Positions 3,414-43,773 of a stretch of DNA of 64,000 bases are shown piece after piece. Position 1 is the first letter of the stretch, and each line of letters begins with the position of its first letter. The stretch is from sequence record MN508616.2; one strand, written 5' to 3'. Both the position numbers and the translations under genes were made by a program. The DNA is from Escherichia phage ES19. The notes under the pieces were generated by a model that was not told where the DNA came from, did not search any database, and saw only the letters and a list, made by a program, of their open reading frames with translations.

Positions 3414-3468
3414 GTTTTTCCTCCATAGAGATTATACTCTAATAAATTAAAGCATAATCTCTTATAAA

Positions 3469-5151
3469 TTAAACCATTACAGTAAATCGACCGACTTTCT
3501 TCATTTGAAGATGCTGACCATATTCTTGCGGGTCATGGTCTTTATGCGAAATTATAAAAACATTAGTGTTTTTCATTGAATTTATAATATTAGCTACACC
3601 TTTAATACCTTCGGCATCAAATGACCCATCAAACACTTCATCGAGTATTAACGTACTAATACTAACACCAGATACAATAGAAGCAATATCACGCCAAGTA
3701 AATAAAAGAGCAATATCAATTCGTGCTTTTTCACCTTCACTAAATGAAGCATAACTAAAATCTTCACGACCACGGGATTTAATTATCTCATTAAATTCTT
3801 CATCTAATGTAAACACATAATCCGCTTCCATTATTTTAAGATAATGGTTAATCTGCTTATTAAATAATGGAATGTACTTTTTAATAATAGCACCTTTAAT
3901 ACCAGAATCTTTGAGCATATCAGTCAAAATTCCTCGGTGGTATTTTTCCATTACTAAATTAGTTTTTGTCTTAACAATTTTATCAAGTTCTTCTTGAAGC
4001 AGTGCTATTTCATCAGCATGGTCAATAAACTCAGAAGATGCTTTTTCTATAGCTGCTTTAACTTTTTTAGCTTTATCTACCGTCGTGATTAGAGATTGCT
4101 TTTTATTGCGAATATCATTTGCCAACGACTGCTGAGTTTTAATATTATCTCGGTATTCATCAACAAGAACTTTTAAATTATCACGGTGTGTTGAAAGCTG
4201 TTCAAACGAATGCGTACATTCAGAAACTTTATCTTTAATTTTAGAAACAACTTTATCACCGGAACTTAATTGTGACAAGCAGGTTGGACATAATCCACCT
4301 TCGTGATACATATTAATGACTTTATTATACGAGTCAATTTTTGATTTAATTAAAACTGCTTCTTGACCGATTTTATTAAATGCATCAGTCGGGTCTTCAT
4401 CCAAAACAATATTAACTAATCTTTCGTTAGCTTCTTCTATTTCCGATTTTAGCATTCTAGCTTCTTTTGCCAAATCATCATACATATTTTGTAGACGTGT
4501 AAGGTTGTCACCCGTTAATTTTTTCTGGCGTTCAACGTTATCATTATATATTTTAATTTGTTGGATAATACTATCTTTTTTAACATCAAGCACTTGGTTT
4601 TGTGAATTTAATTCACGTATTAGTGCTTTATTAAGCTTATCCATTTCAGCTAATGTTCCTACCTCAAGCAGGTCTTCCACAAGCTTTCTTCGCGCAGGGG
4701 TCGACAAACCCATGAAAGGGGTATACCCTGCTGTACCAAGGACAACAATCTGCTTGAAACTGGCATATGACATTCCGATAAGCTGTTCAAATTCTGCTTG
4801 GAAATCTTTACTGCTGGCAGATTCATTAAGACGTGTACCGTTAACGGTGATTTCGAAAACGTTTGGTTTTTGTCCTCTTTTGATATAGTACTTTTTCTCA
4901 TCATATTCCATCCACAGTTCAACTAAAAGTTCTTTCTTATTTGTGCTGTTTATTAATTGGCCTTTCTTTACATCACGAAATGGCTTGCCAAAAAGCCCAA
5001 ATGTGATGGCTTCTAACATAGTAGACTTACCACCGCCATTTCGTCCAGTAATAAGAGTTTTTTGAACCTTATCTAATTGAATGTCAATAGGATTTCCACC
5101 TACTGACATTATATTTTGATACCTAACTCGGTTTAGTTTAAAATTCTTCAC
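3469..5151 (-). CDS. 46: recombination endonuclease subunit gp46 (Rad50/SbcC-like ATPase)
   Basis: 560 aa; Walker A GRNGGGKST near N-terminus, Cys pair CPTC in the coiled-coil region, C-terminal ABC signature region; T4 gp46 length. Confidence 0.9.
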   Translation of the reverse strand: MKNFKLNRVRYQNIMSVGGNPIDIQLDKVQKTLITGRNGGGKSTMLEAITFGLFGKPFRDVKKGQLINSTNKKELLVELWMEYDEKKYYIKRGQKPNVFEITVNGTRLNESASSKDFQAEFEQLIGMSYASFKQIVVLGTAGYTPFMGLSTPARRKLVEDLLEVGTLAEMDKLNKALIRELNSQNQVLDVKKDSIIQQIKIYNDNVERQKKLTGDNLTRLQNMYDDLAKEARMLKSEIEEANERLVNIVLDEDPTDAFNKIGQEAVLIKSKIDSYNKVINMYHEGGLCPTCLSQLSSGDKVVSKIKDKVSECTHSFEQLSTHRDNLKVLVDEYRDNIKTQQSLANDIRNKKQSLITTVDKAKKVKAAIEKASSEFIDHADEIALLQEELDKIVKTKTNLVMEKYHRGILTDMLKDSGIKGAIIKKYIPLFNKQINHYLKIMEADYVFTLDEEFNEIIKSRGREDFSYASFSEGEKARIDIALLFTWRDIASIVSGVSISTLILDEVFDGSFDAEGIKGVANIINSMKNTNVFIISHKDHDPQEYGQHLQMKKVGRFTVMV

Positions 5152-6792: not shown

Positions 6793-7993
6793 ATTTTGTA
6801 ATAATGTCAAACTGTTCTTTAAAGCAGAAGCTTGAATCTTGATGCTGATACAAAAATTCATATGCTTTTTCTCGCTCACGGTCATAAAGAGCTCGGTCAG
6901 ATGACAGTTCTTTAATACGTTCAAACGTTGATTCCATATCATTTTCATCAAACCAAATGATACCGCTATCATGCGAGGTCAAAGGAGTATTATCAACACG
7001 GAATTTTAAATTTTCGCCAGTAGATTTCCAAAATACCGGAATTGTTCCACATGCACCAAGCTCGAGATGAGTATATTCTAAAGAACGTTGTAGATATTTT
7101 TTGTCCAACTTACTCAGCTGATAACCAAAACCGGATTTACTCATGCGTTCAAGCATTTCGCTATTTACATAACGGTCAAGAATTTGCGTTGGCAAATTAG
7201 GAGCAATTTTAATTTGGTCTACTTGATGAAGACGATAATACTCGTATGGAATTCCCTTTTCTTTAATAGGAATGAACGCTGGAGAACGTTCCAGACCTTC
7301 CATAATAGTACTTAGTCCTGCAGGTTTAAGATGTTTTTCATGAAAATCAAACATCTGGTAAAAACCTTTCCATGTAGTAGTACGACCAATCCAACGGTTG
7401 ATATTCATGTTAATTTCAGAAACATCTTTCCAGTAGGTTGATCGAACCTTCGCAATATCCATAGGAGGCTGAAAGTTATATACGGTCGGTGCTTCTTCAA
7501 TATCATCAAACAGAGAAACGGTTTCTGGATACCATTCTTTCATCAGAACTTTATTAAAATCACCATTATCAGAATGGCTAAAAATAACATCAGCTCGACG
7601 AACAGTTTCTTCTAATCCCAAATTTCGGCGCAAAGAAAGAGAAGAATGGTCATGTTGATAAACTACAACACGAACAGAAGGTTTAATGTTATCAATAATT
7701 TTTTTATAGTTATTAATAGTGTCTTCTTCAACCGAAGTAGCAGGAACTGAATTGATAATTAGAATATCACAATCATTTACCAGCTTAAGTGTTTTATCAT
7801 ATTCTTTTGCCAATAAAACCGGAATTGAAAATGATTTATAATCATGCGCGCAATTACGAGTAAATGATTTATCTTTAGCATAAACCAAAGTTACTTCATG
7901 ACCATTCTTAATAAACCAATCACGTTGCTCAAGAGAAAATTTAGTTACACCACAACCTTCAAGACCTCGAGCCATAAAAATACATACTTTCAT
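6791..7993 (-). CDS. agt: DNA alpha-glucosyltransferase (HMC-DNA glucosylation)
   Basis: 400 aa; N-terminus MKVCIFMARGLEGCGVTKFSLEQRDWFIKNGHEVT and overall sequence match T4 alpha-gt as recalled; position between 47 and 55. Confidence 0.85.
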   Translation of the reverse strand: MKVCIFMARGLEGCGVTKFSLEQRDWFIKNGHEVTLVYAKDKSFTRNCAHDYKSFSIPVLLAKEYDKTLKLVNDCDILIINSVPATSVEEDTINNYKKIIDNIKPSVRVVVYQHDHSSLSLRRNLGLEETVRRADVIFSHSDNGDFNKVLMKEWYPETVSLFDDIEEAPTVYNFQPPMDIAKVRSTYWKDVSEINMNINRWIGRTTTWKGFYQMFDFHEKHLKPAGLSTIMEGLERSPAFIPIKEKGIPYEYYRLHQVDQIKIAPNLPTQILDRYVNSEMLERMSKSGFGYQLSKLDKKYLQRSLEYTHLELGACGTIPVFWKSTGENLKFRVDNTPLTSHDSGIIWFDENDMESTFERIKELSSDRALYDREREKAYEFLYQHQDSSFCFKEQFDIITK

Positions 7994-22012: not shown

Positions 22013-22039
22013 TTTTGTTCCTCCGTAGTTGATAGTTGT

Positions 22040-22068
22040 ATAGTACCACAGAGGAATGGTCTTGTAAA
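22040..22068 (-). promoter_or_regulatory. sigma70-type early promoter (TTTACA-17-TACTAT, extended TGG)
   Basis: Minus strand GGTTTACAAGACCATTCCTCTGTGGTACTATACAACTATCAACT; near-identical modules at 23479..23507 and 37574..37602. Confidence 0.5.
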
Positions 22069-23456: not shown

Positions 23457-23478
23457 ATCCGTATCAGTTGATAGTTGT

Positions 23479-23507
23479 ATAGTACCATAAAGCTTTATGT
23501 TTGTAAA
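23479..23507 (-). promoter_or_regulatory. sigma70-type early promoter
   Basis: tgtaaa ... atagta on plus = TTTACA-17-TACTAT on minus, with upstream A/T-rich region. Confidence 0.5.
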
Positions 23508-26228: not shown

Positions 26229-26256
26229 TCTCTTCTCCTTGGCAGTTGACAAGATT

Positions 26257-26285
26257 ACTATATCATAACCTTGCCAACTTGTAAA
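26257..26285 (-). promoter_or_regulatory. sigma70-type early promoter (TTTACA-17-TATAGT, extended TGA)
   Basis: Read on the minus strand. Confidence 0.4.
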
Positions 26286-26288
26286 CCA

Positions 26289-31247: not shown

Positions 31248-31274
31248 GTTGTTCTCCTCTTAACTGATAGAAAA

Positions 31275-31303
31275 ATTATACCACAGTCAAGAGGAAAAGT
31301 AAA
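31275..31303 (-). promoter_or_regulatory. sigma70-type early promoter (TTTACT-17-TATAAT, extended TGG)
   Basis: Read on the minus strand upstream of regB. Confidence 0.5.
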
Positions 31304-33703: not shown

Positions 33704-33728
33704 TTTATCCCTCCAAGTAACTGTGAAT

Positions 33729-33757
33729 ATACTATCACAATTCTAGGAGAAAGTAAA
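33729..33757 (-). promoter_or_regulatory. sigma70-type early promoter for denV (TTTACT-17-TAGTAT)
   Basis: Lies in the 59-bp gap between the e stop and denV start. Confidence 0.45.
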
Positions 33758-33762
33758 TAGCT

Positions 33763-34293
<531 letters not shown>

Positions 34294-34749
34294 TTAAAAG
34301 AGGCTGTTCATTATTCGGTAAAGTGAAGGACCCATCACATATTGCCACTGAGTACGAGGAATAAGAGCAAAAGCATCCATCTCTGGAATCATAACGCCAT
34401 CTTTATTTTCAAAATAAGACTCGCAATGGCAATTTCTAAACATCTCATGCTCTACTGGAATCGTATAATAAAATAACTGTAAGTCTTTATTACTAGAATA
34501 TTTAAATACACCTAAGTCTTCTAGAAGGTCTGGATTATAATCGATAAAACCAGTCTCTTCTGAGCATTCTCTTTTTGCAGCTTCCAGTGCATTCAAATCA
34601 GAACTTTCTACACGCCCCTTTGGAATATCCCAGCGATGTGCAATCATTCCAGGTTTACGAGAACCGGTAACTCGTCCCATAAATAAATCTTTATCTTCTG
34701 TCATAAAGATAATACCAGCTGATAATGTTTTCATTTTAATTTCCTGCAT
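34294..34749 (-). CDS. nudE: Nudix hydrolase
   Basis: 151 aa; Nudix box GRVESSDLNALEAAKRECSEETG. Confidence 0.8.
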   Translation of the reverse strand: MQEIKMKTLSAGIIFMTEDKDLFMGRVTGSRKPGMIAHRWDIPKGRVESSDLNALEAAKRECSEETGFIDYNPDLLEDLGVFKYSSNKDLQLFYYTIPVEHEMFRNCHCESYFENKDGVMIPEMDAFALIPRTQWQYVMGPSLYRIMNSLF

Positions 34750-37165: not shown

Positions 37166-37266
37166 AGTATTTCCTTAGGTTAATTGAGATTTAAAATCCG
37201 TAGGAGTATAATACTCTATCGTCAAATTATAGGCTCATAATATCTCAATCATGAGCCTGCGTAAAC

Positions 37267-37530
37267 TTATTTCATATTATTGAAATATTCTTCTGCGATT
37301 TCGTCGTTATCATGGTAAACTTTAGAAGACAGTTTAACATAACCTTCTGCTGTGAACATATTAATCACAACTTTTACAGTATACCACTGACCGTCTTCAT
37401 TACCCATTACTGCGTAAGTTTCAAACATCGGATGATCAGGACCGATAACTTTAATATCATTCACTGTACGACCGAAATCTTCTGAAACGCATTTCATAAA
37501 GAAGTTGAACAGTTCGCCGTAATTATCCAT
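37267..37530 (-). CDS. hypothetical protein
   Basis: 87 aa from ATG at 37530 with RBS GGAGAATGAA; the track start 37650 lies upstream of the promoter. Confidence 0.45.
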   Translation of the reverse strand: MDNYGELFNFFMKCVSEDFGRTVNDIKVIGPDHPMFETYAVMGNEDGQWYTVKVVINMFTAEGYVKLSSKVYHDNDEIAEEYFNNMK

Positions 37531-38323: not shown

Positions 38324-38417
38324 TTAAAATCCTTGAAATAATTTATCGGTTGGTTATTAATTATTTATTACTTTGTTACTATCCGTAACAGCGTTATCCG
38401 AGTGATTCAAACTAAAA

Positions 38418-38441
38418 AGCCCCAACCTTTCGGTCGGGGCT
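38418..38441 (-). terminator. rho-independent terminator (10-bp stem, GAAA loop, U-tract); copy A of a 31-bp direct repeat
   Basis: aaaaagccccaacctttcggtcggggctaag at 38414..38444, identical to 38971..39001. Confidence 0.6.
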
Positions 38442-38968: not shown

Positions 38969-38974
38969 CCAAAA

Positions 38975-38998
38975 AGCCCCAACCTTTCGGTCGGGGCT
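38975..38998 (-). terminator. rho-independent terminator; copy B of the 31-bp direct repeat
   Basis: Identical to 38418..38441; lies downstream of the non-coding RNA-like region. Confidence 0.6.
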
Positions 38999-39000
38999 AA

Positions 39001-39300
39001 GCCTTGCGGCAACCTTGTCGGGGTTCCACCTGCTAAGGCAAGTGTTTGTACGAAACGCCGGGATTCGAACCCGGTTATTAAGTAGTTGACGCTACTCAAT
39101 ATTTTTAAAAGGCCATATCTCGACCATATCCGAACGTTCCGTCAAAAACGCTACTCGGCTTACGGCAAAGATATTTCCTCGAATCGATAATTCGGTGCGC
39201 CGTTTCTGCTGTGATAGTAAAGAGCCAGAACACAGTAAAACTGTGGGAGGAAACTATACTCCAGGGAACATCAGTCCGACGACTTACCGGTAGCGACCCG
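39001..39300 (-). ncRNA. candidate small stable RNA(s) with tRNA-like 3' domain
   Basis: About 300 nt without a credible ORF between ORF 39306..39656 and the terminator; GC-richer than surroundings; canonical T-arm CCGGG-TTCGAAT-CCCGG on minus (plus 39058..39074) with possible acceptor pairing CGGAACG/CGTTTCG but no full cloverleaf. T4 encodes two stable RNAs next to its tRNA cluster. Confidence 0.3.
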
Positions 39301-39674: not shown

Positions 39675-39750
39675 TGGTCGAGGCAGTAGGGATCGAACCT
39701 ACGACCTAGGACTTAGAAGGTCCTTGCTCTTCCTTCTGAGCTATGCCCCG
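39675..39750 (-). tRNA. tRNA-Arg (anticodon UCU)
   Basis: Cloverleaf folded by hand: acceptor CGGGGCA/TGCCTCG, anticodon loop CTTCTAA, T-loop TTCGATC, encoded CCA. Confidence 0.8.
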
Positions 39751-39754
39751 TAAT

Positions 39755-39830
39755 TGGGGTGACCGATGGGAGTCGAACCCATGACTACGAGAATCACAAT
39801 CTCGAGTTCTACCAACTGAACTACGGCCAC
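39755..39830 (-). tRNA. tRNA-His (anticodon GUG)
   Basis: Acceptor GTGGCCG/CGGTCAC, anticodon loop TTGTGAT, T-loop TTCGACT, encoded CCA. Confidence 0.75.
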
Positions 39831-39924
39831 ATTAATACCTACTCCAACAATCAAGATGTCTTCACACGAAATTAAGAGAAGAGTGATCAGTTCAACCCCT
39901 ATAATCGCGTCAAGTAGATATTAA

Positions 39925-39940
39925 TGTGACAGTTGTCACA
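39925..39940 (-). repeat. perfect hairpin tgtgac-agtt-gtcaca in the spacer between tRNA-Asn and tRNA-His
   Basis: 6-bp inverted repeat read directly; candidate processing site. Confidence 0.4.
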
Positions 39941-39944
39941 AATT

Positions 39945-40019
39945 TGGCGGACGTGATAGGATTCGAACCTATAACCAATCGCTTAACAGGCGATCGCTCT
40001 GCCATTGAGCTACACATCC
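39945..40019 (-). tRNA. tRNA-Asn (anticodon GUU)
   Basis: Acceptor GGATGTG/CACGTCC, anticodon loop CTGTTAA, T-loop TTCGAAT, encoded CCA. Confidence 0.8.
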
Positions 40020-40023
40020 AAAT

Positions 40024-40110
40024 TGGTGGGGAGTGGTGGAGTCGAACCACCCGAGTCGCAATGACAATGGATTTACAGTCCACACCGCTACCTCTACGGG
40101 ATAACTCCCC
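40024..40110 (-). tRNA. tRNA-Tyr (anticodon GUA), long variable arm
   Basis: Acceptor GGGGAGT/ACTCCCC, anticodon loop CTGTAAA, T-loop TTCGACT, encoded CCA; 87 nt. Confidence 0.75.
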
Positions 40111-40119
40111 AAATTAATT

Positions 40120-40194
40120 TGGTGGCCCTGGGTGGAATTGAACCACCATCTGGCGATTATGAGTCGCTTGCTTGAACCTTCCAGCTACAGGGCC
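40120..40194 (-). tRNA. tRNA with CAU anticodon (Met, or Ile if C34 is modified)
   Basis: Acceptor GGCCCTG/CAGGGCC, anticodon loop CTCATAA, T-loop TTCAATT, encoded CCA. Confidence 0.7.
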
Positions 40195-40195
40195 T

Positions 40196-40271
40196 TGGTG
40201 CTGATTGACGGAATCGAACCGCCGACCTTCTCATTACAAGTGAGTTGCTCTACCTACTGAGCTAAATCAGC
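40196..40271 (-). tRNA. tRNA-Thr (anticodon UGU)
   Basis: Acceptor GCTGATT/AATCAGC, anticodon loop CTTGTAA, T-loop TTCGATT, encoded CCA. Confidence 0.8.
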
Positions 40272-40276
40272 AAAAC

Positions 40277-40366
40277 TGGCGGAGGCGATAGGATTTGAAC
40301 CTATGAGTCGCCGGAGCGACTGCCGGTTTTCAAGACCGGTGCATTAAACCACTCTGCCACGCCTCC
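40277..40366 (-). tRNA. tRNA-Ser (anticodon UGA), long variable arm
   Basis: Acceptor GGAGGCG/CGCCTCC, anticodon loop CTTGAAA, T-loop TTCAAAT, encoded CCA; 90 nt. Confidence 0.8.
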
Positions 40367-40368
40367 AG

Positions 40369-40442
40369 TCTCCGTGGCAGGATTTGAACCTACGACATTC
40401 TGCTCCCAAAGCAGACGCTCTACCAAACTGAGCTACACGGAG
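40369..40442 (-). tRNA. tRNA-Pro (anticodon UGG), CCA not encoded
   Basis: Acceptor CTCCGTG/CACGGAG, anticodon loop TTTGGGA, T-loop TTCAAAT; only 2 nt separate it from tRNA-Ser (dimeric precursor arrangement as in T4). Confidence 0.8.
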
Positions 40443-40452
40443 TAAATTAAAT

Positions 40453-40526
<74 letters not shown>

Positions 40527-40531
40527 AAATT

Positions 40532-40618
40532 TGGTGCGAGAAGTGGGACTCGAACCCACAAGGAAATCATTCCGCAGCATTTTAAGTGCTGTGCCTTTAC
40601 CAATTTGGCCATTCTCGC
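40532..40618 (-). tRNA. tRNA-Leu (anticodon UAA), long variable arm
   Basis: Acceptor GCGAGAA/TTCTCGC, anticodon loop CTTAAAA, T-loop TTCGAGT, encoded CCA. Confidence 0.8.
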
Positions 40619-40619
40619 G

Positions 40620-40692
40620 CTGGGAATAAAGGACTCGAACCTTTGCATCCTGGAATCAAAATCCAGTGCCTTACCAACTTGGCTAATTCCCA
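40620..40692 (-). tRNA. tRNA-Gln (anticodon UUG), CCA not encoded
   Basis: Acceptor TGGGAAT/ATTCCCA (U1-A72), anticodon loop TTTTGAT, T-loop TTCGAGT; 1 nt from tRNA-Leu (Gln-Leu dimeric precursor as in T4). Confidence 0.8.
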
Positions 40693-40693
40693 A

Positions 40694-40717
40694 TTATTAA
40701 CAAAGGCTCTTAAGCAA
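40694..40717 (-). promoter_or_regulatory. possible MotA-dependent middle promoter for the tRNA operon
   Basis: Minus strand TTGCTTAA (near MotA box) followed about 12 nt later by TAATAAT ending just upstream of the tRNA-Gln 5' end; weak motif match. Confidence 0.3.
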
Positions 40718-40789
40718 GAACCCTTGATGATAGAGGGTATTAATCAGTGCGATATGAGTTAATAATAACAAATAATTCTTAAAGCATAT

Positions 40790-41077
40790 TTACCATTTAT
40801 AATAATACATATTTACGATGCATTCAAGACCCAAAGGATTCTTGAAAATATCATATTCAAGAGGACCTTTTTCTGTTTCAATAAAGAAATCAAAATTTAC
40901 TGTATTAAATTTACGTTCTTCCTTCACTAATTTAACTTGAGAAGATGAACGGTCAATGTAAACCTTTTCAACTTCAAAACATGTTAAAATGCCATAATCA
41001 TCAATCAAAGCTTTAGCCGCGTCTTGATCATATTTATATCCATTTTCAATGGATGATACTTTCGCATAAAGAATCAT
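40790..41077 (-). CDS. hypothetical protein
   Basis: 95-aa ORF upstream of the tRNA cluster. Confidence 0.45.
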   Translation of the reverse strand: MILYAKVSSIENGYKYDQDAAKALIDDYGILTCFEVEKVYIDRSSSQVKLVKEERKFNTVNFDFFIETEKGPLEYDIFKNPLGLECIVNMYYYKW

Positions 41078-41079
41078 TA

Positions 41080-41478
41080 TCAGCCTTCATCAACAATAGT
41101 GTGAGTATTAGCATTTACGATTTGCCACCAATCAAAGCGATTAGAATCCATCGGTTTGTTTTCATTTTCTTTGATAATGTCACGGAGTTCATCTTCAGAG
41201 AATGCTTTAGCAATTAAATCGGTATACCCACCACGGGGATAATAATTATCACCTGCAAACAAAAGGAAATTTACCTTCCCGGAAGCAACATATGCTTCCT
41301 TAGGATACTTGTTTCCTGCGTGGTCAACCACTTCAATATAACGGTAAGGAATATCGGTTCTTTCAGCCCATTGCCATGCCGCCGCAGGGGAATCGAAAGC
41401 ATCTACACCTAAACGATTATCTTCATCTTTAGACGGATTATTTTCGTAATCCGCATATACATAATATTCAACGTTCAT
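41080..41478 (-). CDS. hypothetical protein
   Basis: 132-aa acidic ORF. Confidence 0.45.
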   Translation of the reverse strand: MNVEYYVYADYENNPSKDEDNRLGVDAFDSPAAAWQWAERTDIPYRYIEVVDHAGNKYPKEAYVASGKVNFLLFAGDNYYPRGGYTDLIAKAFSEDELRDIIKENENKPMDSNRFDWWQIVNANTHTIVDEG

Positions 41479-41663
41479 TATTCACCTTTAGAAATTTTAT
41501 CCATAACAATAGCAATTAAACCAATTAAAAATGCTACTACAAGTGAAAACACATTTTCTGCTGTAGTCAATAATCCACATATAAATCCAACAAACATTGA
41601 AAAACTAAAAGCGGAAGCAGAAATTGCAATAGCAACATTTCGAATTAATTCACAACGTTTCAT
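41478..41663 (-). CDS. small membrane protein
   Basis: 61 aa, mostly hydrophobic; RBS GAGGAGAA; downstream of the promoter at 41692..41720. Confidence 0.45.
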   Translation of the reverse strand: MKRCELIRNVAIAISASAFSFSMFVGFICGLLTTAENVFSLVVAFLIGLIAIVMDKISKGE

Positions 41664-41691
41664 TTTATTCTCCTCAGTAGTAGATAGGGTA

Positions 41692-41720
41692 ATAGTATCA
41701 CTACCCTATCTAAAAGTAAA
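41692..41720 (-). promoter_or_regulatory. sigma70-type early promoter with -10 flanked by a perfect 9-bp inverted repeat
   Basis: TTTACT-17-TACTAT on minus; gatagggta (41683..41691) and taccctatc (41702..41710) bracket the -10. Confidence 0.45.
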
Positions 41721-41721
41721 C

Positions 41722-41955
41722 TTATTTTTTACGAAAAATTGATTTATTTTCTGCTGCCCATTTTTCAATAACTGCAGCAGGACCAGTAACAACAATTTTA
41801 TCACCGTAATCTTCTGCGGCGAGTTGACCGAAATTATCTAATGCATCACGAAGAACTCCATGAGGCATTTCACCCATTTTATCTTTCTTGCCAGTGTAAA
41901 TAAACTCAACTTTTACATCAGCAGTTTCAGCAATAAATTCTTGGTAAGTTTTCAT
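41722..41955 (-). CDS. internal-protein-like protein with canonical capsid targeting sequence
   Basis: 77 aa from ATG at 41955: MKTYQEFIAE-TADVK, identical to the T4 IP leader as recalled; the track ORF adds four upstream codons; rest of the protein does not look like T4 IPI as recalled. Confidence 0.55.
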   Translation of the reverse strand: MKTYQEFIAETADVKVEFIYTGKKDKMGEMPHGVLRDALDNFGQLAAEDYGDKIVVTGPAAVIEKWAAENKSIFRKK

Positions 41956-41989
41956 TTTGATTTCCATTTGGTTTTGTTTTGATAGGGTA

Positions 41990-42018
41990 ATAGTATCACA
42001 ACTAAAACCCTATGTAAA
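41990..42018 (-). promoter_or_regulatory. sigma70-type early promoter (TTTACA-17-TACTAT), degenerate copy of the inverted-repeat module
   Basis: gatagggta at 41981..41989 with only a partial right arm. Confidence 0.4.
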
Positions 42019-42031
42019 CAACTTTGTGAAA

Positions 42032-42289
42032 TTATTTTAAATCTTCTAATCGTTTCTTCATCTTAGAACCATTTTTAGCAATTTCTCCTGCATCGGAGCA
42101 TAATGCTAAAAGTGCTTTAACTTTAGTTTGGTCTCCTTTAAAAGATGAAGGATCGACCGCAGCAGCAAGTTCTTTAATACGAGAGAAAAGACGCTCAGCT
42201 TCAGCTAAAGCCATTCCAAGCTTTACTTCCATACCGTGGGAAGATTCAGTGATAGTAGTTTTTGTAGCAAACTCTTTGAAAGTTTTCAT
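42032..42289 (-). CDS. internal-protein-like protein with capsid-targeting-sequence-like N-terminus
   Basis: 85 aa; MKTFKEFATKTTITE-SS; RBS AGGAAAA; preceded by an inverted-repeat promoter. Confidence 0.45.
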   Translation of the reverse strand: MKTFKEFATKTTITESSHGMEVKLGMALAEAERLFSRIKELAAAVDPSSFKGDQTKVKALLALCSDAGEIAKNGSKMKKRLEDLK

Positions 42290-42320
42290 TTTTATTTTCC
42301 TAATTAATTTTGATGAGGTA

Positions 42321-42349
42321 ATAGTATCACTACCTCATCAGTATGTAAA
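42321..42349 (-). promoter_or_regulatory. sigma70-type early promoter with -10 flanked by a perfect 9-bp inverted repeat
   Basis: gatgaggta (42312..42320) - atagtatcac - tacctcatc (42331..42339); -35 tgtaaa at 42344..42349. Confidence 0.45.
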
Positions 42350-42362
42350 CAACTTTGTGAAA

Positions 42363-43047
<685 letters not shown>

Positions 43048-43048
<1 letters not shown>

Positions 43049-43773
43049 TATAGTACCTTTAGTGTATTTTTAATTTTAGAAAAAAGTTCTTCAAGAGAAC
43101 CATCGTTTGTAATTACTAAATCGCCATCACGAATTGGCAATCCAGCTTCTGTAATATGTGTATCATTGGATTTTTGACCAGGACGAACTACATGAATTAC
43201 TGTAGCACCCATCGCCCTAGCCGCATCCATTTCATGATCTTGACGGGTATCAGGAACGATATAATAATCATAACCTGAGTTAAATTTATCAAGATAATCT
43301 AAAGCAAATAATTTTACCCAGTACATGCGGTCGAAGTTATTAACAATCAAATCCGTACCTAGGGCTTGCATCAGACGACGGACTGACCATTGATCTTCAA
43401 TATTATTTATAACGTCAGTAATTTTGTTAAATGCTACGAAATTAACTGATTCTTTTCCTTCGTCATCAAAAACAAACACACCTTTAATTGGGCTTTTACC
43501 ATTAAGATAGCAAAATGCTTGTTCCATAATCATAATTACTTCTAATTTAGTCAAATTCAAATTAGTCTCACGATCATAGTCAATTCCTTCAAACTCTCTA
43601 CGAGTTAAGCAAGGATAGTCAGTGTTTGCTGCAAATACACCCCATGCATAAGCCAATGCATCTTTAATAGGACCAGCAAGTTGATATTTAACTGCAGAAT
43701 AATTATTCATGATAAAATCTGCAGTAGTATCTTTTCCACTACGCTTTACACCACTTAAAAAGATTAGTTTCAT
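43048..43773 (-). CDS. 1: deoxynucleoside monophosphate kinase gp1
   Basis: 241 aa; P-loop GVKRSGKDT; T4 gp1 length. Confidence 0.9.

Follow-up and report, generated by a model that had tools for sequence, protein, structure and literature searches.

Inverted repeats around early promoters at the internal-protein locus of a T4-like phage are probably PeSL-like cassettes with a read-through hairpin

Background

The closest described relatives of the elements discussed here are the promoter-early stem-loops (PeSLs). They were defined in RB49 and phi1 in Arbiol 2010 (PMC2839356), with five positional subclasses, one of which has a stem-loop overlapping the -10 element. The same work demonstrated promoter activity for PeSLs, found one RB49 stem-loop to be terminator-like (PeSL211/210 only), and proposed that modules are shuffled through PeSL-mediated mini-circles. 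According to the account of Repoila 1994 given in Arbiol 2010 (PMC2839356), PeSL-like elements had been seen at the two T-even internal-protein (IP) loci; Arbiol 2010 regards these as analogues, not homologues, of the RB49 PeSLs. Their promoters are of the T4 type, and their stems are weaker, rich in AT and free of polyG/polyC. Comeau 2014 (PMC4122927) extended PeSLs to PST/T4 and nt-1/KVP40, gave the consensus TTTACW-N17-TAYWAT and repeated the link with the IP locus. Both papers (PMC2839356, PMC4122927) proposed that the elements act as terminators and recombination sites, without a covariation test.

A second group that must be kept in mind is formed by the leader hairpins of T4 genes e, soc, 49 and I-TevI, which contain an internal promoter and fold only in read-through RNA (PMC3014915).

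We have studied three intergenic regions of Escherichia phage ES19 within a stretch of 64,000 nucleotides of sequence record MN508616.2 (the whole of this stretch is called the window below). The original prediction was that promoters in this region have their -10 element bracketed by a perfect inverted repeat that is selected for its structure, for example as an operator for a dimeric regulator, or as a cruciform or hairpin affecting initiation. Our analysis confirms that the inverted repeats around the -10 elements are real, non-random and under selection, but it does not support the mechanisms proposed for them. Judging from the sequence, we think it probable that these hairpins are PeSL-like cassettes flanking T-even IP genes, that is, elements of a kind already described and not new ones.

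The locus and its promoter hairpins

The genome type of the window is Tequatrovirus (T4/PST-like). The approximately 1.6 kb surrounding the hairpins is 100% identical to the corresponding region of Escherichia phage D5505, Yersinia phage PYps35T and other Tequatrovirus genomes, and has matches in 778 phage records. On the minus strand the gene order is 57A, 57B/Acb1, an ipV-type gene, an ipVI-type gene (annotated start 41955, MKTYQEF), a trna.4 homologue, trna.3, trna.2 and a cluster of 11 tRNAs (Table 1). Yersinia phage PST has the same 57B-ipV-ipVI-tRNA.4 layout, and its two small genes are named ipV and ipVI; T4 has only one gene, ipI, at the same place. Among relatives the locus holds one to three ip genes, every one of which begins MK(T/S)(Y/F)(Q/K/N)EF. 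Matches of 79.6% to cassette A in Klebsiella phages (Jiaodavirus) were set aside, since they correspond to the motB-cef promoter, share the general early consensus only and are not orthologues.

Table 1. Features of the 57B-trna.4 region, in positions of the window
Feature	Positions	Strand	Remarks
Gene 57A	42818-43048	-	
Gene 57B (Acb1)	42363..42821	-	upstream gene; its transcripts would read into cassette B
Early promoter B	42321..42349	-	-35 TTTACA 42349-42344, 17-nt spacer, TGn, -10 TACTAT 42326-42321
Hairpin B, upstream of ipV	42311..42340	-	10-bp perfect arms TGATGAGGTA/TACCTCATCA around GTGATACTAT
Cassette repeat copy 3	42308..42378	-	57B last codons and stop, AT-rich region, promoter, hairpin; 86% to copy 2
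ipV-type internal head protein gene	42032..42289	-	85 aa, N-terminal MKTFKEF; phrog_3499, E = 1e-49
Cassette repeat copy 2	41977..42047	-	end of ipV
Early promoter C	41990..42018	-	TTTACA-N17-TACTAT
Hairpin C, upstream of ipVI	41974..42021	-	imperfect, longer; -35 in 5' arm, -10 in 3' arm
ipVI-type internal virion protein gene	41722..41967	-	77/81 aa; phrog_8111, E = 1e-52
Cassette repeat copy 1	41679..41749	-	end of ipVI; 61%
Early promoter A	41692..41720	-	-35 TTTACT 41720-41715, 17-nt spacer, TGn, -10 TACTAT 41697-41692
Hairpin A, upstream of trna.4	41681..41712	-	11-bp perfect arms TAGATAGGGTA/TACCCTATCTA around GTGATACTAT
trna.4 homologue	41478..41663	-	61 aa; heads the gene block leading to the tRNA cluster
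331-bp unit, ipV and one cassette	42044..42374	.	absent exactly from L153
298-bp unit, ipVI and one cassette	41682..41979	.	absent exactly from T4 and L163

Three minus-strand early promoters of the form TTTACW-N17-TACTAT, all downstream of gene 57B, stand upstream of ipV, ipVI and trna.4. Two of them carry the perfect repeats of the original prediction, whose sequences are exact at 41683-41710 (GATAGGGTA-N10-TACCCTATC) and 42312-42339 (GATGAGGTA-N10-TACCTCATC) and whose arms are slightly longer than first reported (Table 1). In both, the minus-strand 10-nt spacer is the extended -10 element (TGn followed by TACTAT), TTTACT or TTTACA lies 17 nt upstream of the -10 hexamer, and the spacer segment immediately 5' of TGn/-10 is complementary to the 9-11 nt immediately 3' of the -10. 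As sense RNA, hairpin A is a 14-bp stem with an AUAC loop (-18.5 kcal/mol, z = -5.2) and hairpin B a 13-bp stem, also with an AUAC loop (-17.4 kcal/mol, z = -6.05). Hairpin B is identical in T4, where it stands upstream of ipI and the ipI promoter is 100% identical to copy B.

The third copy had been described as a degenerate version at 41981-42013. A hairpin does exist there, but it is a different structure, imperfect and of another topology: 48 nt at 41974-42021 with 21-nt arms, 81% complementary, and a 6-nt loop (-18.1 kcal/mol, z = -4.4). All three cassettes are laid out alike: the stop codon of the preceding gene comes first, followed by an AT-rich region (AAAATAATTTCACAAAGTTG or AAAAAATAAG), the -35, the spacer, the TGn/-10, a Shine-Dalgarno sequence and finally ATG.

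Comparison with described elements

Every feature of PeSLs that can be read from sequence is found at this locus. PeSLs are intergenic, lie among the small ORFs of the hyperplastic region and stand next to small non-essential genes, as here between 57B, ipV, ipVI and trna.4. Their promoter consensus, with AT-rich sequence upstream, is matched exactly by all three copies. A stable stem-loop in or beside the promoter is present (-17.4 to -18.5 kcal/mol, z = -4.4 to -6.1), and the cassette is bounded on its 5' side by the stop codon of the preceding gene and on its 3' side by a Shine-Dalgarno sequence with a start codon. PeSLs are repeats conserved over about 70-100 nt, and here there are three copies of 71 nt. 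Finally, indels and replacements in PeSL regions have their end points in the cassettes, which is also true here of units of 331 bp and 298 bp and of the hybrids at loci L137 and L146 described below. One published observation counts against the identification: Comeau 2014 (PMC4122927) placed the PST stem-loops "just upstream" of the promoter. There is also a difference from RB49, where terminator activity was measured for one GC-rich stem-loop, whereas the hairpins here are without a U-tract.

The likeness to the leaders of e, soc, 49 and I-TevI is that the promoter lies inside the hairpin, so that RNA made from the internal promoter is without the 5' arm. However, in those T4 genes the internal promoter is late and the 3' arm covers the Shine-Dalgarno sequence or AUG, whereas here the promoter is early and the 3' arm stops 17-21 nt before AUG. 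Early-promoter versions of the Shine-Dalgarno-sequestering type do occur elsewhere in the window, at regB (31253-31298) and at 22017-22062.

With intrinsic terminators the hairpins share a stable intergenic RNA structure at the end of a gene, but they have no U-rich tail, the stems being followed by CUACUGAGG, AAAAUUAAU and AAACCAAAU, and we reject this reading. Indeed, a terminator scan of 40700-43200 returned 0 terminator-like sites, and the lack of a U-tract after any of the three hairpins makes efficient intrinsic termination unlikely. Sequestration of the Shine-Dalgarno sequence by hairpins A, B and C is rejected on geometry: the perfect stems end 17 and 21 nt before AUG and leave the Shine-Dalgarno sequence free, and in copy A weak outer U.G pairs alone reach GAGG. 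A coupling to RegB sites is not general either, GGAG being found downstream in copy A only. No Rfam family besides the 11 tRNAs reached its gathering score anywhere in the window, and our literature searches for T4 5'- or 3'-end maps of the 57B-trna.4 locus found nothing usable.

Repeated cassettes and gene shuffling

The three intergenic regions form a family of direct repeats (D1; 71 nt, three copies, 61-86% identical) whose copies begin within the last codons of the upstream gene. Whole units of gene plus cassette are missing from relatives, and both are exactly one repeat period long (331 bp and 298 bp). The IMG/VR locus L153, which is without the ipV unit, otherwise matches the window at 100% identity across 626 + 644 nt; the junction of the ipVI unit, missing from T4, lies within the shared GTGATACTATTACCCTATC. 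Left and right cassette halves have also been exchanged, the hybrids being joined inside the shared -10 region. Matching phage records number 492 for the ipI-type cassette, which is 100% identical in T4, and 729 for the trna.4-type cassette, many of the latter matching only rightward from the -10. The repeated cassettes of about 70 nt thus supply the homology for insertion, deletion and swapping of whole ip genes.

The products of these exchanges are informative about the promoter. In the L137 and L146 hybrids, AATAGGGTA is combined with TACCTCATC, or AGGGCT with TACCTCATC, and one hybrid has a duplicated GATACTATTACCTCATCAA; at the T4 trna.4 promoter, the 5' half of the third-copy type is joined to a TACCCTATC 3' half, leaving a 6-bp stem only. 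None of these promoters has lost any of its elements. Intact promoters with mismatched arms argue against a role of the arms in initiation, and the proposal of a cruciform or hairpin affecting initiation is not supported. The original prediction had itself named loss of symmetry from conserved promoters in close relatives as the observation that would speak against it, and promoters intact with broken arms are what these relatives have. The persistence of broken-stem hybrids, together with the 6-bp stem of T4, further indicates that the phages can do without the hairpin at some positions at least.

Selection on structure

Perfect inverted repeats of at least 9 bp are not in excess in the window (11, against 7.6 +/- 2.3 in dinucleotide shuffles). 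Two repeats in the same register on the 12 consensus promoters would nevertheless be expected only about 1e-4 times, and the degenerate arm pattern has 3 matches in the window against 0.22 expected, the arm motif being found nowhere else in it. Significant sense-RNA hairpins (z <= -3.3) occur at 5 of the 12 strict early promoters (A, B, C, 22045 and regB); the remaining 7 lie outside such hairpins (z >= -1.1). The statement that other early promoters of the window lack the symmetry holds for 23479 and 37574 and is only partly true of 22040, which has no short repeat but lies within a 12-bp longer-range hairpin pairing the spacer with the Shine-Dalgarno sequence (z = -4.9). Further near-consensus cases are seen at 26243-26288 and 37229-37274; P45.2, a known middle promoter, lies at 3425-3470.

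The comparative material consisted of regions downstream of 57B from 36 IMG/VR loci, 15 metagenome loci (all that the 57B-based metagenome scan contributed), T4 and PST. Every early promoter of strict consensus was extracted from them, giving 82 distinct sequences in an ungapped alignment anchored on the promoter. Of the 120 loci that matched the pattern TTTACW-N13-GTGATACTAT in IMG/VR, most were chance hits on unrelated contigs, and only the T4-like ones were used.

That the perfect copies differ in their arms and keep the symmetry, as had been noticed at the outset, is correct: two positions have changed, and both changes are compensated (AG/CT against GA/TC). Over the 82 promoters, covariation of columns 9-19 with columns 30-40 is 0.251, against 0.149 +/- 0.012 in shuffles (0/500 as high), figures which are inflated by the mutual relatedness of the promoter sequences and are not to be read as probabilities. 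When the partners are slid by 1-3 columns, covariation falls to 0.098-0.149. Paired cells make up 51% in the true register and 33-43% in the controls, and the mean duplex energy of the true 5'/3' partners is -8.4 kcal/mol, against -5.8 +/- 0.3 for permuted partners. At least eight unrelated arms occupy the one register (GATAGGGTA, GATGAGGTA, AGGGCT, AGGGTT, GAGGAC, GAGAGC, GTGTAGGAGC and GGTGGAGTT), some of them at promoters that stand before unrelated genes. Given the slid controls and the many different arms, neither chance nor common descent is likely to be the whole explanation, and the claim of selection on structure over sequence is supported by the compensatory pairs, the same-register covariation and the unrelated arms taken together.

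Could the symmetry nevertheless have no function? The palindromes might be by-products of cassette duplication, kept by templated quasi-palindrome or strand-switch mutation or by gene conversion. The cassettes are indeed recombining paralogous repeats, quasi-palindrome correction is a known mutational pathway of T4, and the 3' arm overlaps the conserved downstream consensus of early promoters, (C)TATCAAC, so that the 5' arm alone must "copy". We nevertheless think this unlikely, because the same geometry is built from unrelated arms before unrelated genes (GAGGAC/GTCCTC, GAGAGC/GCTCTC, GTGTAGGAGC/GCTCCTACAC), because G.U intermediates are present instead of an all-or-none conversion, and because the three intergenic regions are similarly stable through different topologies.

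RNA or DNA

Several observations bear on the molecule in which the structure is selected. The antisense strand folds more weakly (-14.7 kcal/mol for A and -13.7 for B, against -18.5 and -17.4 for the sense strand); the advantage of the sense RNA comes from three further pairs (G.U, U-A and G.U), which close part of the "loop" and leave an AUAC tetraloop. Hairpin C reaches nearly the same energy (-18.1 kcal/mol) by its own topology. The single-substitution variants of the perfect stems, both PST copies included, are all G:T on the sense strand (GATGGGGTA/TACCCTATC, GATGAGGTA/TATCTCATC, GATAGGGTG/TACCCTATC and GGTGGAGTT/AACTCTACC), and in the trna.4 cassette of PST GATGGGGTA pairs with TATCTCATC through two G.U pairs. 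A:C mismatches are confined to evident recombinants; among permuted partners A:C is commoner than G:T (98 against 72). For a duplex operator or a cruciform it would make no difference whether a mismatch is G:T or A:C. The asymmetry, which counts some 4-5 independent events and is suggestive only, joins the folding energies in favouring a structure formed by the sense strand when single-stranded; a hairpin in DNA of that polarity would fit the asymmetry as well as one in RNA. As far as sequences can tell, the evidence points to a sense-strand RNA hairpin, formed only in read-through transcripts, as the structure under selection.

The reading at the DNA level holds that a cruciform or a hairpin of the non-template strand modulates promoter opening, or is a hot spot for recombination or endonuclease VII that drives cassette exchange. 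G:T is the least destabilising DNA mismatch, so that the asymmetry would suit single-stranded DNA of sense polarity. However, a 10-nt spacer with AT-rich arms of 9-11 bp is a poor substrate for cruciform extrusion. The crossovers do fall within the shared -10 and 3'-arm sequence, and one RB49 mini-circle crossover was mapped to the loop of a stem-loop (Arbiol 2010, PMC2839356), but the 331-bp indel has its junction outside the hairpin, in the AT-rich/-35 homology upstream of it, so that plain short-homology recombination is enough. We consider a DNA-level structure quite improbable.

An operator for a dimeric DNA-binding regulator of initiation, which the perfect dyad centred on the -10 in one register at two promoters might suggest, is hardly credible, since the arms are unconserved and share no half-site, the motif is absent from the rest of the window, the mismatches are strand-asymmetric, the promoter survives loss of the dyad in the hybrids and at T4 trna.4, and the sites face T4 immediate-early promoters, which are active before any phage protein exists (PMC2988021).

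A possible mechanism

The explanation that we prefer, PeSL-like cassettes with a read-through hairpin, is one in which we have fairly good confidence as a whole. Each cassette carries a strong sigma-70 early promoter, whose own transcripts should start about 7 nt after the -10, within the 3' arm, and could not form the hairpin; for promoter A, this usual distance of 7 nt would put the start at about 41685. Transcripts that read through from upstream would hold both arms, and these would pair to give a hairpin of -17 to -18.5 kcal/mol that stops 17-21 nt short of the following start codon. Their sources would be the upstream cassettes and, in T4, the middle promoter P57A, which has been mapped upstream (PMC2988021). 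The hairpin may then mark a transcript boundary, as a weak attenuator without a U-tract or a pause site, and may act as a barrier to 3' exonucleases. With such a boundary, each ip gene would be expressed mainly from its own promoter. Within this identification, we find the case for a measurable boundary effect at the RNA level about evenly balanced against weak selection or a by-product.

A broader proposal is a "transcript-origin switch", which T-even early promoters would have in general and for which the arms would be under selection in the RNA. With the 5' arm lying between -35 and -10, read-through RNA and RNA from the promoter itself would differ in 5' structure; the outcome would be a boundary or stability effect in the IP-locus type, and sequestration of the Shine-Dalgarno sequence in the regB and 22045 type. 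We regard this generalisation as rather doubtful.

Conclusions

The compensatory and G.U pattern reported here is a modest refinement of what is known of PeSL-like elements, and not a discovery. If the transcript-origin switch were true, it would have its first comparative evidence in the path that leads from one perfect arm type to the other with G.U pairing preserved. Internal proteins, such as IPI* with its action against GmrSD, are anti-restriction effectors that the phage injects, and the cassettes that flank the ip genes are the means by which T4-like phages exchange these effectors, a role already present in the literature. This is of relevance to the evolution of phage host range and to the engineering of therapeutic phages.

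Early promoters within hairpins

The arrangement in which an early promoter lies inside a stem-loop is not confined to the cassettes that flank the internal-protein (IP) genes, and elsewhere in the window it is found at regB, the identity of the gene behind this hairpin being confirmed by a match to PF10715. The hairpin (-22.9 kcal/mol, z = -4.45 for the RNA fold) has as its 3' arm the Shine-Dalgarno sequence of regB itself (AAGAGGAG). This sequence would be masked in read-through RNA, which should contain both arms, and free in the RNA made from the promoter's own start.

The original prediction described the early promoter at 22045 as devoid of symmetry. This is correct insofar as a short inverted repeat is absent, but a longer-range stem does bracket the promoter, formed between the promoter's spacer and the Shine-Dalgarno sequence that belongs to a 175-aa ORF (phrog_2274); its energy is -19 kcal/mol and its z = -4.9. 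The hairpin at 26243-26288 (-21.6 kcal/mol, z = -4.8), with a 34-aa ORF (phrog_3515) immediately downstream, is one more promoter of this kind outside the IP locus. At 37229-37274, upstream of a 197-aa ORF (phrog_1203), the arms occur in relatives as compensated variants (GGGCTC/GAGCCC and CAGGCTC/GAGCCTG). For a further early promoter, which has a palindrome in its spacer, RNA folding gives no significant structure (z = +1.0).

Hairpins and related features in the window
Feature	Position	Strand	Details
Middle promoter hairpin (gene 45.2)	3425-3470	minus	MotA box (TGCTTTA) and TATAAT within 16-bp hairpin
Stem around early promoter 22045	22017-22062	minus	12 bp, arms UUCCUCUGUGGU/ACUACGGAGGAA
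Palindrome CATAAAGCTTTATG	23460-23478	minus	perfect, 14-nt, between -35 and -10 of early promoter (-10 at 23484)
Promoter in hairpin	26243-26288	minus	TTTACA-N17-TATAGT within 15-bp hairpin
regB early promoter hairpin	31253-31298	minus	TTTACT-N17-TATAAT, -10 at 31280, inside hairpin
Hairpin upstream of denV	33707-33752	minus	-18.1 kcal/mol
Gene e (lysozyme) leader hairpin	34251-34296	minus	late promoters TATAAATA within
Promoter in hairpin	37229-37274	minus	GTTTACG...TATTAT within 11-bp hairpin, arms AGGCUCAUGAU/AUUAUGAGCCU
GC-rich terminator hairpin, two copies	38395-38440, 38973-39018	minus	GCCCCGACCGAAAGGTTGGGGC and T-run
tRNA cluster	39678-40692		11 tRNA genes

Other hairpins and duplications

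The hairpin upstream of denV, whose 3' arm covers GGAGG and whose loop contains a -10-like TAGTAT, resembles the one preceding gene e, which is the textbook leader hairpin of the lysozyme gene. Close downstream of the tRNA cluster, the two terminator copies, separated by about 580 bp, enclose a single ORF, which gives the appearance of a terminator duplicated on either side of a gene. The cluster itself is larger than that of T4, which has 8 tRNA genes; in the close relative 232Ecol030PP it is not interrupted by segB.

A duplication of another kind is seen in L137, a related IMG/VR locus with hybrid cassettes (IMGVR_UViG_2706796299_000001, 7177-7260), where GATACTATTACCTCATCAA, comprising the -10 and the 3' arm, is repeated in tandem within one cassette, in what looks like a product of slipped recombination.

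A middle promoter within a hairpin

The promoter upstream of gene 45.2, the counterpart of the mapped T4 middle promoter P45.2, also lies within a hairpin (-20.8 kcal/mol, z = -5.6). Comeau 2014 (PMC4122927) gives the PmSL type for nt-1 alone, and the arrangement at gene 45.2 is PmSL-like.
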